From: an uncultured Candidatus Binatia bacterium
GTDB lineage: Bacteria; Desulfobacterota; Binatia; Bin18
Length of the DNA stretch: 64,000 nt
NCBI GenBank assembly: GCA_965214755.1
Contig: OZ243979.1
Span: 1,923,251 to 1,987,250 of the forward strand
Reading direction: 5' to 3'
Position numbers and translations under genes: made by a program. Within the stretch, counting starts at the first letter, position 1. Each line of letters begins with the position of its first letter. Shown here piece after piece: positions 28,004-34,157 of the stretch. Under the pieces are notes generated by a model. It ran no database searches. It was not told where the DNA came from and saw only the letters and a program-made list of their open reading frames with translations.

Positions 28004-28223
28004 CAAGCGGGAAAGGACGCCAGAGGACACCTAAAAATGCATCTCCTTCCTCTCTAAAATACGTTATATCCACAATAGTCTTGCCGATTTACATGAAATC
28101 CAGCATCGTGACTGTATATTTTCACGTATATTAAGGTCGGTGTGACCAGTCAAAACTTTTCTCCGCCGCCTCTGGGATGGGGAGATCATCGCGTAAGCGG
28201 GTTGACACTCTACGCCTGCGCCA

Positions 28224-30906
28224 TCACCACGTCCTGAATCCTTGCCGGCTCGAACGCCACCTCAAAAAATCCCACTGTCCAAAACCGCCCTGCTCATTCA
28301 CCGCCCGAATCCAGATGTCCATAGCCGCGCGTTTCGCTCGGTTCTGTTCGCTGTCTTGGCCTTTCACTTCTAATACTAGCATCTCACCGTTGCGGAAACG
28401 AATCACATAATCCGGCACAAAGTTTCGGGATGAACCCCGATCCAGATGGTTGTTCTTGACCCAGGCTGAGATAGGCGGCTCAATTTCACATATATCCGCA
28501 ACCGCCTTCTCCCACACACTGTCGTACACGGCGTGACTGATGTGCGATTTCACCGTGGCTTGGCACGGCTTTGTGGTGTACTAGGTCCGCATAGAGGCGG
28601 TTGAGCCAATCGCCTGATCTGGATCAAAGCAGACCTGCAATTGCTCGGCATTCTGCTTGCGCACGAAGCAGCTGACATGGCCGACCACTGTGTCCATATT
28701 CAGCGCAATCAGGATGCGACGACGCACCGGGTCTTGATGCCACAGACCGGGGATGTCGAGTTTGTCGCTGGCCAAAAACGCTTCTGCCAGCCGAATCAAT
28801 TGCACCGCTAGATAGGATATATCGCCCGAGAAGGCATCGGCGTTCAGAAGATACAACTTCCGGGCCGCTCGGAAGATGAGATTTTGGAGCCGAAATTCTT
28901 CAACCGCCTGCTCCAGGTCGATAGTACTCAGCTTGGACAAGTCAGTATGCCCGGTCAGGGCCGGAGCGACTTCCGCAGAGATGGGCGTCTGTGCAGGGTC
29001 CAAGGTCAAGGGTTCTACGGTATCCCAATCTATGACCAGTGTAGGACGGAGAAGCGTTTCTATGCGGGCCACATTCGGCCAGCGGATTTCATACTGGTTG
29101 CGTCCGGGGACGACTTCAACTTGCACGCTGGGTTTTGGCGGGGGCGGTACTGCTCCGCCTTCTCCAATATCCTGAAAGATGGACAAAGGAACGCTAAAGA
29201 CATTGACGTATTCCGGCAAGAATAATCCGTCCTCATCGCGCTCATACGACACCCGCCACAGCCCCCGACCAATCACCTGCTCGCACAGCAATTGACTCGT
29301 AAAGGCTCGTAGTCCCATGATGTGGGTCACATTCGCGGCATCCCAGCCTTCCGACAGCATGGCGACAGAGATGATATTTTGGAGCTTCTGTTCAGGTTTT
29401 CCCCGTTTGCCAACAGTATCGACGCTGGCGCGCAACTGTTCTTCCTGCTTGGCGCGTAACAACTCTTCGAGTTTATCATCAGGCAACCCTGAAACATTCA
29501 GGATCGCCTCCAGCCGTTCAGCATAGTCCTTATTTTTTGTGATCGATTCACCACGTTCGGCTTTTTCCAGCACCCGCGAATCAACCCGCAGCGTCTTTTC
29601 GAGATGTTGCAGACAGTCAGCAGGACCGTCGGTATCTCGTGCCCCTCGGCCTTCCAGTCTTCGGCTATTTCGCGCCAATCGTAGGCCAAAAGCGCATAGG
29701 CTTTCTGCACCAAATCGGGCAAGGGTTCGTGCGGCTCTGCCTTCCGGTTGAGGTCCTCCTTCACTTCCGCTTCGTTATAGAGGTGATAGAGCTTGCTCCT
29801 ATAGGTTTGGGCATTGGCGAGGGCATCGTCACGGACAACCACACGCGGAGTCTTGACTAAGCCGGCTTCAATAGCGTCATTCAGGCCAAAATCAGAAACG
29901 CTCCAATCGAACAGCCCCTTTTCGGTGGACTTCTTTCCGGTTGGGGCAAAGGGTGTCGCCGAGAGGTCAAAACAGCGACGAATCCGCCGGGTCTTGTGGA
30001 TACGGTCGAGCCCTTCTATCCAACGGGTGGCTCTTCCAGATCAATACCAAATTCCTGTGCCTCTCTTTTACTGACTTTGACCTCGGCACGCTGGCGGTAG
30101 GCATGGTGCGCTTCGGCATTGATAACCACGAGATTCTTGTAGCCGGCCAGCTTGCCTAATACGCGCCGCGTAAAAGCCTCATCGCTTCCCGCTCCCTTTT
30201 TGACAGCAGAGCGATCAGGCTCCTTGAGCGGCATGAGGCTATGCCAGTTCTCCACCAGGAGGACGGCCTGATTGACCTTCTAACGCAAAGCCTCATTCGG
30301 ACACAGACGAAACTCGTCGTAGACATTCTTTTCATGGCCCGGATAGAGCACCGGCAAGCGCTCCTTCACGGTCAGGCCCGGTGCAATAACAAAAATGGCT
30401 TGGGAAAATTCTTTGCGTTTGGGATAGGTCAGGGCATTCAACACCTGCCAGGTAATGATAAGGCCCATGAGCGTGGTCTTCCCGGCACCGGTTGCCATCT
30501 TATTGCAAATGCGTTCCCAGGGACCACTATCGCCGGGCAGGTGGATACCTTGCTTATATTCCGGCGGCCCTTCTACCCACCAGATCAATGTCTCGATAGC
30601 TTCGAGTTGGCAGAAGTAGAACGGCAACTAGCGTGCCTCGCGGTCGTGCCAATGTTCGAGCAAACGACGAGACACACTGGTCACGCCGGGATAGCCGGCC
30701 TCCCGCCACGCATCCACACGCGGACGAATACGGTTGACTCGCTCAAGCTCTTTAACCCGGCGGGTGTTGTTGCGCGTGTCAATAATCTCATACCCAGCCT
30801 CACGCCGGCCGGGTCTGACATCTAATACCTGTCCCCGTTCGTCCTGAGCCCAATGCTGCTGTGGATTGTCGTAGGGGGAGTTAATGATGAGGGAGGTTTG
30901 GGTCAT
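28224..30906 (-). pseudogene. res: Type III restriction endonuclease Res subunit, inactivated (4 in-frame TAG codons plus 2 or more frameshifts)
   Basis: Fragments carry the Res N-terminus, helicase motif I (ATGAGKT), motif VI (MLSEGWDAANVTHIMGLRAFTSQLLCEQVIGRGLWRV) and a C-terminal PD..(E)VK nuclease. In-frame TAG at 30628-30630, 30280-30282, 30016-30018 and 28581-28583. Frame changes near 30016 and 29678-29842. Confidence 0.8.
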
Positions 30907-31472
30907 TACACTGTCTCGGGTGGTAACATATCGCTAATAGAGAGAAATGGCGTTTCCGCGAAGGTCGTAATATGTATCGATCTGTATATCTCTTGCTTTC
31001 CTTCCGGGGAAACCAGAACTCCTTGTCTATCAAGCATTCTGCTCAATTGCTCTGCTATAAGGACATATCTGGGCGTCAGATTGGATCTCCAGTCGCTAAA
31101 CTCGCGTTCAGCTTCAACTTCACACACGGAAAGCAGATATTTCAAAATTGGCAGGGAGCGCCGTAGCTGCTCCTTGGCCTCTTCCTCTTCGCGCAGCTTG
31201 TTCTTCAATTCGACAAAGATAACGTAATCGTTGCCGTCCGATTGACCAGTCAGCACATAGTCGCAGCTTTTTTTCACATTAGGGTGGTCTCGCAACCCTC
31301 GCATATGCATGCGTGGGCTTATACGTATGGCGAGAAAAGGTGCGGAAACACCGGTAAGCTCAACCTCCATTTTCGATTGATGATCCCGAAGAGTGACGAC
31401 GCCATTAGGTGCCTTGGGACGCTGAAGAAATTGCGATCCTAGAACGGTCTCCAATTGGGAAATCAACTCCAC
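30906..31472 (-). CDS. Hypothetical protein with a putative PD-(D/E)xK nuclease motif (D...DYVIFVELK); GTG start; stop overlaps the res start (TAATG)
   Basis: 188 aa, intact. Translationally coupled to res. Downstream of the ATPase gene. Confidence 0.5.
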   Translation of the reverse strand: MELISQLETVLGSQFLQRPKAPNGVVTLRDHQSKMEVELTGVSAPFLAIRISPRMHMRGLRDHPNVKKSCDYVLTGQSDGNDYVIFVELKNKLREEEEAKEQLRRSLPILKYLLSVCEVEAEREFSDWRSNLTPRYVLIAEQLSRMLDRQGVLVSPEGKQEIYRSIHITTFAETPFLSISDMLPPETV

Positions 31473-31553
31473 CTCACTCTTCCTCTTCGACCGTCATACC
31501 ACTTACTTTTCTCTCATCACTAATTGTTAAATATACTACTTGTGACAAAAGAA

Positions 31554-32975
31554 TCAATCTCCCTCGTGCTTTAGCCGGAATCCGAGTTCATTGGAAATCT
31601 TGTTGATATCGTGAATCGTTGTGTCAAAGACCGGCATGTCAATGCCGTATTTTTCAATCGTACACTGCGTCAGGCTGTTGTTTTCCGCCGCGTAGGCTCG
31701 GACCGAATCGGGCTTCAGGTAGTCGTGCTCTGAGTACTTGAGTTTTTTCAGCACCTTGGGCTTGTCCTTGAAATCCTTGCTCAGCATGAGCAGATTGTTG
31801 ATTTCCTTAACGATATAGTCGCTGTGGGTCGTAATCAGGACTTTCAGACCAGCGTGGACGGCCCGCGCCAACAGACGCGCCAGGGCAATCTGATTGGCTG
31901 TGTCAAGATGACTTTCCGGTTCGTCAATGATGGGAAGCTGATTTTTTTTGGCGATGTGGCGCAGAAAGAAATACAGGTCCGATAATCCACGGACCGAAGA
32001 AGAGGCGATATGGAGAGGAATATCGAAGCTATCCGCTTTCCGCGCATTTGATTTGAATCGGATGTCGTCACCGGAACTTTTGTAATAACCTCCCATCATG
32101 TCTCTGATATTCTTAAACAATTCAGAGGCGTATATTTCGCTTCGTTGCCTTTGGAGATCGGGAAGACCTCTGGTGTAGTCGATGTTGTCTCTGATGGGAA
32201 GCGCGTACCGACCGGCCAGCTTGTCGATTATCAGGAATGGCTGGAAACGTTCTCTTTCCCTGTCCTGTCCGATTTCTTGAAGCGCCTCCACTAAACGATT
32301 CTTTGTAAAGTCGAGTTCCTTGTAGAAGAGCGATATACCAAAACGCTCGGCGGAGAGAATGAACGGTTCGGGAGATTCAGGAAAAAGAAACGAAAGATAA
32401 AGGTCTGAGAGAACACTTGAAAGAGCATCAGCGGGAGGAGATTTTCTGCTGCCCCCCTTGCTTCTGGACAGACACATTTCATCATCTGTATAGGCAAGTG
32501 TAAATTTGTCTCCGGTGGAGAGATTAAGCGTTTTGCTCGGCGCGTGCTCAGGAAACTTATCTCCAATTACGACTTCGATAGACGCGCCTTCGAAGTCTTT
32601 GTCTGAAGAGCTAAACACATTCGCCAGGGCTTCTTCTGAGAAGTCTTGAGCCACTTCTCCCATAATGAAGTGGCGATCTAAATTAAGCGTCTCTCGATCC
32701 ACGGACCACTTCACCTGACCCTGTTCTACGACTGTTCTGGCAAGCGTTTTCATGGCTGGGGGACGTGATTTAGTGCCGGAAAAGGGAGGGAGCTGGACCA
32801 ACTCATCAAGAAACTCTGGGAGCGGGGGCCAGTTTGGCCACATTTTGAGAAACCCATACAACGTATACGCCACATATGTCTTGCCGGTATTATTCCGACC
32901 GGCAATGATCGTCAGATCGCCTAGTTCCAGTTCGGCTTCGTTTATGGGACCGAGGTTCTTAAATACGAATTTCAT
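31554..32975 (-). CDS. AAA-family (AAA_15/AAA_21, ABC-like) ATPase
   Basis: Walker A IIAGRNNTGKTY, Walker B/D-loop IIDEPESHLD...TTHSDYIV. About 473 aa from MKFVFKNLGPI. Intact. Confidence 0.8.
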   Translation of the reverse strand: MKFVFKNLGPINEAELELGDLTIIAGRNNTGKTYVAYTLYGFLKMWPNWPPLPEFLDELVQLPPFSGTKSRPPAMKTLARTVVEQGQVKWSVDRETLNLDRHFIMGEVAQDFSEEALANVFSSSDKDFEGASIEVVIGDKFPEHAPSKTLNLSTGDKFTLAYTDDEMCLSRSKGGSRKSPPADALSSVLSDLYLSFLFPESPEPFILSAERFGISLFYKELDFTKNRLVEALQEIGQDRERERFQPFLIIDKLAGRYALPIRDNIDYTRGLPDLQRQRSEIYASELFKNIRDMMGGYYKSSGDDIRFKSNARKADSFDIPLHIASSSVRGLSDLYFFLRHIAKKNQLPIIDEPESHLDTANQIALARLLARAVHAGLKVLITTHSDYIVKEINNLLMLSKDFKDKPKVLKKLKYSEHDYLKPDSVRAYAAENNSLTQCTIEKYGIDMPVFDTTIHDINKISNELGFRLKHEGD

Positions 32976-33053
32976 GGCTCTGTCTCCGCAGTGCAGGTTG
33001 CGTGTTTCCCTCACCCTAACCCTCTTCCAGAGGGAGAGGGAATAGGAGGCCGG

Positions 33054-33951
33054 TCAGTCGGTGATATCCATCACCTTGAGGCTTTCAATGCCGCGGTCAT
33101 CAACGATTTTTACGGCGATACGTCGATTGTCGCCCGGCTCGAAGGGCAGGGATTTTGTGCCCTGAAACCGGGCCAGCAACAAACGGTCGCGCAAATAGCT
33201 GAGATAGGAGTGAATCCCCAACTCCCACGTGTCCCGAAACGCCTTAATCATCTCCGGCTCTTGGGTCAGGTCATTATCATTCCGATCTTTCACATCCCGC
33301 TTATTGGTGAACGGCTGAAAGTTCGAGCCGTATTTGATGCCATACGGCGGGTCGATGTAGATCATCTGCACCTGCCCGGCCATGCTCTCCTTGTGTAACA
33401 GTGAGTTCATGACCAGCAGCGAATCGCCGGCAATCAGCCGGCTGGCCCAGTCGCGCTCGTGCTTGTAGAAGTCGATGGCTTCGCGCAACGGCAGGTTCTC
33501 GAACGGAGCGGCAAACAGGTCAGGCTGGAACTCTGACTTGCCTCTTGCCTTTTCCTCCCTTCATACGTTTCTGTACCGCAGCCAGAAGCGTGGCCGGGTC
33601 AATCCGCTCATGAACGTGCAGCGCCACCGTATCGACCTCAAAGCTGGTCCGTTCGGCCTTGCCGGTCCAGTTGAGATATGGCGCGTGCAGACGTTTGAGC
33701 TCTTCCAGGGCTTGGCGCATGACCGCCTCATCTCCCGAGGCGAGAGCGTCGTCAATCAGCCTTTCAATGTCGGCGCGGGCGGTGTCAAAGTTGAGAGTCG
33801 GGTCGATATGCGGGTCGCAGGCCCAGCTTGTCTGTCCCTCCACCTCGTCGCTGCTGGTATCGACCATGCCGACATGCGGATTGTTCTTGCGCTTGTCGCT
33901 GTGGCGGTAGCTGAGGGTCTGCTTGGCTGTCTTTTGCTTAGAGGTTGCCAT
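33054..33951 (-). pseudogene. mod: Type III R-M Mod (N6-adenine methyltransferase) remnant: N-terminal region and DPPY motif only; frameshifted and lacking the TRD and motif I
   Basis: ORF 33520-33951 carries a Mod N-terminus (LNWTGKAE...LHVHERIDP). ORF 33054-33488 carries [25 protein letters not shown]...IYIDPPYG and then ends after about 80 aa. The two are in different frames. Confidence 0.7.
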
Positions 33952-34157
33952 TCCATGTTCTCAAAATATCTGTTCTCAATTCTCTGTGTCCAGCCTGGAA
34001 ATTTCCTCAACGCTCCAGCGGCCCGGACGCTTTCTCCATGATGACATATCCAGCAACAAATGTCGTTTATACAGCGTTTCGTTCGTTGCCGGGTCGGCCA
34101 ATCCCTTGGCCCCGGCGGCCCAAGATGCTATGGCCCAAGAAAAAGGAGGATACTATT

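Follow-up and report, generated by a model that had tools for sequence, protein, structure and literature searches.

The locus described here raises the question of why two open genes lie inside a dead restriction-modification (R-M) system. It occupies positions 28210-33951, on the minus strand, of a 64,000-nucleotide stretch of DNA from an uncultured Candidatus Binatia bacterium (contig OZ243979.1, positions 1,923,251 to 1,987,250; the whole stretch is called the window below). The open reading frame (ORF) map and the raw sequence give the order mod remnant, gene A (an ATPase), gene B (a protein of 188 residues) and fragments of res. The same order was given in an original prediction made from the letters of the sequence, and all four features were found where it had placed them. 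That prediction proposed that A and B form a defence module, and that with mod and res they could be a four-gene system. We consider it quite likely that A and B are an anti-phage pair of the PD-T4-4 / PDC-M47 type, carried as cargo in an R-M system that is now dead, and that the pair is itself in early decay.

Identity of genes A and B

Gene A (31554-32975, minus strand) is an open ORF of 473 residues for an ABC-type ATPase (AAA_15/AAA_21) of the PD-T4-4_A / PDC-M47A family. It matches the PADLOC model PD-T4-4_A PDLC04033 with an E-value of 6.2e-110 (residues 101-467 on model positions 80-457 of 460), model PDLC04032 with 2e-69 (residues 1-470 on positions 1-471 of 474) and PDC-M47A with 1.6e-90. 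The next-best families, AriA, NsnB, GajA and PtuA, are far weaker, with PtuA and AriA at 1e-22 or worse. The protein also aligns over its full length with the PD-T4-4_A of a plasmid (L040 in our numbering of comparison loci) at 27% identity and an E-value of 1e-44 in BLASTP. The pair on this plasmid scores 1.3e-262 (A) and 3.1e-108 (B) against the PD-T4-4 models and is therefore treated as bona fide PD-T4-4. All the catalytic motifs of A are present (GRNNTGKT, IIDEPESHLD and TTHSD), and the Walker B strand carries a substitution, L348P, which is considered below.

Gene B (30906-31472, minus strand) is an open ORF. The original prediction had seen in it a D...ELK motif of the PD-(D/E)xK type, and the predicted fold is indeed that of a restriction endonuclease of this type, with a putative site formed by D71 (31262-31260) and E88-x-K90 (31211-31209 and 31205-31203). 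B has 154 homologs, and in an alignment of 78 of them E88 and K90 never vary and at least 90% of the sequences have D71; a helix of sequence EQLRRSLP is also conserved. The fold and the three conserved residues together support the nuclease assignment. B has no match in Pfam or NCBIfam, and neither HNH nor Toprim was detected in it with Pfam, NCBIfam or PADLOC. The earlier statement that the partner is of neither kind agrees with this lack of profile matches and with the PD-(D/E)xK fold.

The PADLOC models matched by B are PDC-M47B (6.8e-6 over 63 residues, about one third of the model) and PD-T4-4_B (8.7e-5 over 55 residues). Within the aligned family, 75 of the 78 members match PDC-M47B (best 2.4e-11) and 22 match PD-T4-4_B. 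The family profile was also aligned by hhalign with the L040 protein, which scores 3e-108 on PD-T4-4_B; this gives, over 145 columns, 89% probability and an E-value of 2e-6, and the catalytic Asp of the two is aligned. From these comparisons, a divergent subfamily of the PD-T4-4 / PDC-M47 group is the best description of B.

As judged from profile matches and predicted fold, A-B is a divergent member of the known PD-T4-4 / PDC-M47 anti-phage family, in which an ABC ATPase is paired with a PD-(D/E)xK nuclease. The profile matches and the fold are thus consistent with the proposed defence-type module of an ABC ATPase and a small nuclease. The suggestion that the small partner was unrecognised has to be given up, since a named family is matched (PD-T4-4_A at 6e-110, and PDC-M47A/B). 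Septu (PtuAB) and PARIS (AriAB), to which the pair had been likened, were rejected; the partners there are HNH (PtuB) and Toprim (AriB), and the PtuA and AriA scores are far weaker.

Some observations on relatives of the two proteins may be recorded here. The PD-T4-4 effector is listed as HNH in a 2026 preprint (10.64898/2026.07.10.737580), while it is PD-(D/E)xK according to PMC10952713, PMC12137116 and 10.1101/2025.07.10.664194. PD-T4-4 pairs are the main cargo of enterobacterial plasmids of 4-5 kb. The E. coli plasmid NZ_CP051743.1 (L038, 4802 bp) and similar Klebsiella and E. coli plasmids of 4.2-4.8 kb are of the ColE1 type, with the PD-T4-4 pair as main non-replication cargo; a pair on a small ColE1-type plasmid gives 3e-123 (A) and 1e-43 (B) on PADLOC. 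Short-form A alleles of 370-395 residues were found at L006:8232-9350, L007:8881-9993 and L009:8812-9993 and among the proteins P0196, P0198, P0203 and P0217. About 80-100 residues of the variable insert that separates Walker A from the Q-loop region are missing from them, and mod and res are both intact in the cassette that holds the L006 allele.

The mod-res junction and its cargo

Comparison loci were collected with a B-family motif (34 genome loci) and, in addition, by exact-protein look-ups. Gene A lies directly upstream of B in 36 of 37 loci, which carry at least ten phylum- or class-level labels. Apart from one Caldilineaceae locus (L032), all loci in which mod and res of the same family stand beside the pair are from Candidatus Binatia. 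L002 and L049 carry mod-A-B-res with all four genes intact, and in L001 the only lesion in this arrangement is an amber codon at res codon 21; L005, L006 and L032 also have the order. The predicted order is found again in these relatives. In intact relatives Mod has 1026-1056 residues and Res 928 (L001 is syntenic with the window, while L002 and L003 lie at other sites).

Such an order might mean that Mod, A, B and Res form one integrated machine, for example with A-B as an accessory to the restriction complex, in which case the pair would have no independent role. The order occurs in at least eight loci, including one from a second phylum (L032). The TAA of B and the ATG of res have one base in common (TAATG, 30908-30904), an overlap that had been predicted and was confirmed in the raw sequence, and the B stop overlaps the res start in L001 and L002 as well. 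However, in L005 and L006 a gap of 36 nucleotides separates B from res, and about three quarters of the fetched A-B loci are without such an R-M system, among them L004 and L045. Furthermore, mod and res of L003 are intact despite a fragmented A.

It is important to compare the locus with other R-M systems of the same family, BPTD_3080. In its canonical form, as in Sphingobium and M. avium, no gene separates mod from res, and elsewhere the slot between them takes unrelated cargo. On the Thermus plasmid NZ_AP025594.1 (L043:6128-6973) the slot holds a DUF3800 protein with no PADLOC match. On the Planktothrix plasmid AP017994.1 (L042:4867-6962) it holds an ABC ATPase resembling NsnB/PDC-M55A/HEC-03B and a protein of 232 residues, the latter again with no match in PADLOC. 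In the Caldilineaceae locus OY282381.1 (L032:913-13884) an IetS serine protease (PADLOC, 6e-253) is found together with a PD-T4-4-like pair. The 232-residue protein and the DUF3800 protein are candidate defence genes by their embedding. Embedded defence cargo seems to concentrate at the mod-res junction of the BPTD_3080-family R-M, which would make it a hotspot; in the literature, no paper was found that surveys this junction for cargo.

The sequence similarities of the four genes also follow different rankings. The Mod and Res fragments of the window are 82-90% identical to those of every R-M-embedded relative, while the values are 68-80% for A and 50-88% for B. A is closest in L049, whose B is distant; the closest B is that of L001; and L005 combines the closest Res with the most distant A and B. 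The discordance between A, B and Mod/Res suggests that the pair is an exchangeable embedded module, with recombination even within the pair. On the evidence of gene order and similarity, the pair is independent cargo and not half of a four-gene system, and we regard the single machine as extremely unlikely.

The G+C content is about 60% in the flanks, 53-55% in the R-M genes and 47-48% in A-B. This stepwise drop marks the island as foreign in composition, and A-B as more foreign than the R-M genes around it. The island sits between a CMD-family gene and a DUF2332 gene. No convincing direct or inverted repeats that could mark mobile-element boundaries were found flanking the island, neither a tRNA gene nor an Rfam family was detected in the window, and the HNH gene present downstream of res in L001 and L049 is absent from the window. 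The spacer between mod and A (32976-33053, minus strand) contains a G/C-rich imperfect palindrome at 33008-33034, and the same sequence is conserved between mod and A in L002 and L003. A terminator or a repetitive extragenic palindromic element was considered for it and rejected, as the palindrome is single-copy in the window and its fold is no more stable than that of shuffled sequences (z = -0.18).

The closest match of the window flanks is a Candidatus Binatia assembly. Flanks about 91% identical to the window over 3.9 kb were also found in L009 (NZ_CBDCEO010000013.1, a contig of 2.65 Mb), which is labelled Candidatus Poriferisodalis (Actinomycetota). The same stretch of the window is about 91.5% identical to the Candidatus Binatia chromosome OY761159.2 (L004), and the label or the binning of L009 looks inconsistent. 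A second ABC ATPase system, AAA_21 with RloB, was found at L045:15662-16573, about 7 kb from the A-B-only locus.

Decay of the shell and state of the pair

The res pseudogene (28210-30906, minus strand) is a remnant of a BPTD_3080-family, Type III-like helicase-nuclease. Its four fragments match NCBIfam NF046055 over positions 2-957 with E-values from 7.8e-25 to 3.1e-102. Lesions were called by codon-level alignment to the intact 928-residue Res of L002 and to those of L003 and L001. Nonsense substitutions are present at codon 93 (CAG>TAG, 30630-30628), codon 209 (CAG/CAC>TAG, 30282-30280) and codon 799 (TGG>TAG, 28583-28581). Three indels shift the frame, namely losses of 1 nt near 30033 and of 70 nt near 29606 and a gain of 2 nt near 28271, and 21 nt are deleted in frame near 28442. 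In place of a single intact Res ORF of about 930 residues there are thus three nonsense codons and three frameshifts, and the gene is dead, as had been predicted.

The prediction had counted four in-frame TAG codons in res. Three of them are the true substitutions given above; the fourth (30018-30016) is out of frame and results from the 1-nt deletion. The end of res, which had been placed at 28224, is moved to the native stop, a TAG at 28212-28210. Recoding or suppression of TAG was considered as an explanation for the all-TAG pattern and rejected, each codon being a single transition from CAG, CAG/CAC or TGG. The pattern needs no special cause: the ancestral codons are common ones, res ends natively in TAG both here and in L001, and no tRNA gene was found in the window. 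From the raised ratio of non-synonymous to synonymous rates (dN/dS) on the window res branch, about two nonsense substitutions would be expected by a rough estimate.

The mod remnant consists of two ORFs in different frames. The first (33520-33951, minus strand, 143 residues) is the N-terminal fragment, 85% identical in tblastn to residues 1-139 of the L002 Mod. It is cut by a +1 frameshift, an extra G at 33542, which is specific to the window; in a sister strain (L050, contig ERZ21849000 NODE_2169, 98.83% identical over 13.4 kb) this frameshift is absent and the remnant is one ORF of 298 residues. The second fragment (33054-33488, minus strand) joins residues 238-370 and 1016-1056 of the L001 Mod in one frame (tblastn). 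An in-frame deletion of about 1.94 kb has removed approximately residues 371-1015 of this 1056-residue protein. Its junction, at about 33178-33172, lies at a CTGCT(G/A)GC microhomology, and blastn shows positions 4484-6423 of L001 to be missing here.

Motif IV (IDPPYG) and the final 41 residues of Mod are kept. The second fragment matches the PADLOC model MTase_III PDLC03632 at positions 152-258 of 983 with an E-value of 3.5e-42, and the Pfam domain N6_N4_Mtase is no longer detected in the mod remnant of the window. No complete N6_N4_Mtase Mod is therefore left, only these model positions and the last 41 residues, with a frameshift in addition. Motif I and the target-recognition domain presumably lay in the deleted region, according to the general layout of beta-class Mod enzymes. 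The predicted death of mod is borne out by the frameshift and the deletion relative to intact relatives, and the predicted loss of motif I and of the target-recognition domain agrees with the removal of the region that generally holds them in this class of enzyme.

Relatives illustrate how such a cassette may erode. In L049 all four genes are intact, and they occupy the same chromosomal site as in the window, between the CMD-family gene and DUF2332. In L001 mod, A and B are intact and res carries an in-frame TAG at codon 21 (L001:8567-8650; CAG in the others), the gene caller starting Res 26 codons late. An amber codon in res alone is consistent with res being hit first when the R-M system decays. 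In L004, whose housekeeping flanks are 88-91% identical, mod is gone and res is reduced to its first 23 codons while A-B is kept, and L045 has A-B alone. This same-site series, from the intact cassette to A-B alone, suggests that the shell erodes first. The reverse pattern is seen in L003 (L003:6583-7999), where mod (1030 residues) and res (928 residues) are intact and the ATPase is split into four ORFs of 57, 69, 77 and 221 residues. In the window itself there are no disruptions in about 2 kb of A+B, compared with about eight in about 3.6 kb of R-M remnant; by our own estimate the Poisson probability of this under one rate is about 0.01.

The sister strain L050 allows the lesions to be ordered. 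It has in common with the window the mod deletion, two of the res nonsense codons (TAG93 and TAG799), the 70-nt res deletion and a 68-nt insertion between A and B. The mod frameshift, TAG209 and the 1-nt deletion at 30033 arose on the window side after the two strains split, and on the L050 side further indels appeared, together with two nonsense codons in B. The common insertion (31490-31557, minus strand) is AT-rich and lies at the 3' end of A, as placed by a junction alignment with six relatives and by blastn breakpoints. It is flanked by an imperfect 9-nt duplication at 31558-31566 and 31481-31489 (CGAGGGAGA / CGAAGAGGA) and contains a sigma-70-like match, TTGATT-16-TATATT. A search of the window and of the comparison loci gave no further copy of it.

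Several points weigh against the reading of A-B as an anti-phage pair, and in particular against its current function. The insertion gives a spacer of 81 nt between A and B, where relatives have 1 nt or an overlap. Codon 348 of A (31932-31934, minus strand) is CCC, so that the Walker B strand reads LPIIDEPE instead of L[LIV]IIDEPE. This position is L, I or V in 86 of 86 other homologs and in 36 of 36 homologs derived from loci, and L348P is unique to the window. The residue lies within strand E347-351 of the structure model. Changes derived on the window branch, polarised with outgroups, are D283A, D289N and L348P in A and I75T in B. In L050 gene B (L050:5058-5624) has S33>TAG and R58>TGA, and its A is intact with Leu348 (CTC). 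The two strains have thus damaged different halves of the pair, A in the window and B in L050.

The substitutions between the window and L050 point in the same direction. Long-range pairwise dN/dS cannot separate recent relaxation from constraint, and the sister-strain comparison was used instead. The counts of non-synonymous to synonymous differences are 10:6 in A, 8:2 in B, 9:19 in five flanking housekeeping genes and 20:5 in the mod and res remnants. A+B together (18:8) differ from the housekeeping genes (Fisher p = 0.013) and resemble the pseudogenes (p = 0.52). Three further points concern the defence assignment. The matches of B cover only about 60 residues with E-values of 1e-5 to 1e-4, and PADLOC-style coverage rules would probably miss the system; the defence role of this B subfamily is predicted from its relatives; and the neighbours of stand-alone pairs are mostly metabolic, replication and housekeeping genes, with little defence-island signal. 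Finally, purified PD-T4-4 was inactive on all DNA substrates tried (bioRxiv 10.1101/2025.07.10.664194). This inactivity on naked DNA in vitro makes it likely that a phage cue is needed or that the target is not DNA.

The earlier description of the pair as full-length holds for the two ORFs, which are both open; the unique L348P in A and the 68-nt insertion that parts A from B speak against it in a functional sense, and the copy of the window may be hypomorphic or dead. The argument that retention implies selection likewise stands in part. In its favour are the same-site relatives that keep A-B after R-M loss and the Poisson estimate, and against it are the stop codons in the L050 B, L348P and the pseudogene-like substitutions. 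It seems that the cargo outlived its shell and is now probably under relaxed constraint in this lineage. Whether the pair of the window still works is, in our judgement, a question to be answered with a hesitant no.

The damage to both strains might also be read in another way. The pair could watch the flanking R-M system, as PrrC does, and fire when a phage anti-restriction protein disables Mod/Res; it would be silent under Mod/Res, and after the death of the R-M system it would be a liability or useless and would then be inactivated. An ABC-ATPase effector embedded in an R-M system mirrors prrC in EcoPrrI (PMC12707154), and both strains with a dead R-M system have independent damage, L348P in A here and the two nonsense codons of B in L050. 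However, one damaged gene per strain in two strains is also expected from neutral decay. An R-M partner is missing from most homologous pairs, the frames of A and B are still open in L004 and L045 after full R-M loss, and the effector here is a separate PD-(D/E)xK protein with no fused HEPN anticodon nuclease. We find this explanation very improbable, and grade it below the proposal of a cargo hotspot at the mod-res junction.

The stand-alone copies, mostly found among housekeeping genes, could further suggest that the pair has no defence role and that it is an ATPase-nuclease of DNA repair or maintenance, or a selfish addiction module, whose association with R-M genes is incidental. The ABC fold is common to SMC, Rad50 and RecF, and the defence role of the subfamily is, as said, extrapolated from relatives. 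However, the best matches by far are defence families, PD-T4-4_A and PDC-M47A and then AriA, NsnB and others. In L032 the pair lies inside an R-M system with IetS, and in L048 a TIR gene adjoins it. The patchy distribution, low G+C, high allelic diversity and frequent loss are typical of accessory defence genes. We judge a role outside defence to be improbable, and the anti-phage pair carried as cargo is the reading followed below.

Proposed mechanism and comparison with known systems

The anti-phage pair might work as follows. A, an ABC-type ATPase and presumably a dimer, would be the sensor and switch, and B the effector. By analogy with PD-T4-4 and WonAB, an infection cue would cause the ATPase to license B to cut nucleic acid, and the infection would be stopped by an abortive route. 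As for its history, the four genes may have arrived as one island of lower G+C between the CMD-family and DUF2332 genes. Gene res would have been hit first, as viability requires, and mod would then have been gutted by the 1.94-kb deletion, so that the cargo outlasted the shell. The 68-nt insertion may have uncoupled B from A.

With this locus the PD-T4-4 / PDC-M47 group gains a divergent B subfamily that occurs in Binatia and in further uncultured lineages; on its own this has little weight. It also extends "guilt-by-embedding" to a Type III-like R-M family; this is a small step, as embedding itself is an established idea. The four kinds of cargo in the mod-res slot offer a cheap route to the nomination of new candidates. 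The series at one site, from intact cassette through res hit first, gutted shell and cargo alone to decaying cargo, illustrates how a nested island erodes. It is important to note that an open reading frame beside pseudogenes is no proof of selection.

Among known systems, PrrC and RloC are alike in that an ABC-ATPase effector is nested between R-M genes, which in their case are of Type I. They differ in being a single polypeptide with a HEPN tRNA nuclease, and PrrC depends on EcoPrrI (PMC12707154). No HEPN domain was found in the window pair, where the effector is a separate PD-(D/E)xK protein.

WonAB, from the WASA-1 prophage of Vibrio cholerae, is similar by its published description, an OLD-type ABC ATPase with a small variant PD-(D/E)xK nuclease (PMC12137116). 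Its action depends on both genes, on the ATPase motifs and on the nuclease Lys; infection is aborted without lysis, and the ATPase stabilises the nuclease (PMC12137116). WonAB is prophage-borne, and its ATPase differs in inserts and C-terminal extensions according to its authors, who place PD-T4-4 in the same wider group (PMC12137116).

PDC-M47 gives the best match on the B side and is a candidate that was defined by its nesting inside other defence systems, a feature which the pair described here shares. It is a "guilt-by-embedding" prediction of Payne et al. 2024 (bioRxiv 10.1101/2024.01.29.577857; PADLOC-DB v2). The hosts surveyed there were Hma, BREX, DISARM and Type I R-M, while the host in the window is a Type III-like R-M system.

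PD-T4-4 came out of a functional selection in E. coli that sought anti-phage systems (PMC9519451), and it forms higher-order complexes (bioRxiv 10.1101/2025.07.10.664194). It has two genes in the same order as A and B and of similar sizes, about 470 and about 190-210 residues. The active site is D...DQK in the plasmid protein and D...ELK here, and the two B proteins are only distantly related. The known contexts of PD-T4-4 are an element in E. coli resembling an integrative and conjugative element (PMC9519451) and small plasmids, whereas the pair of the window is found inside a Type III-like R-M system.

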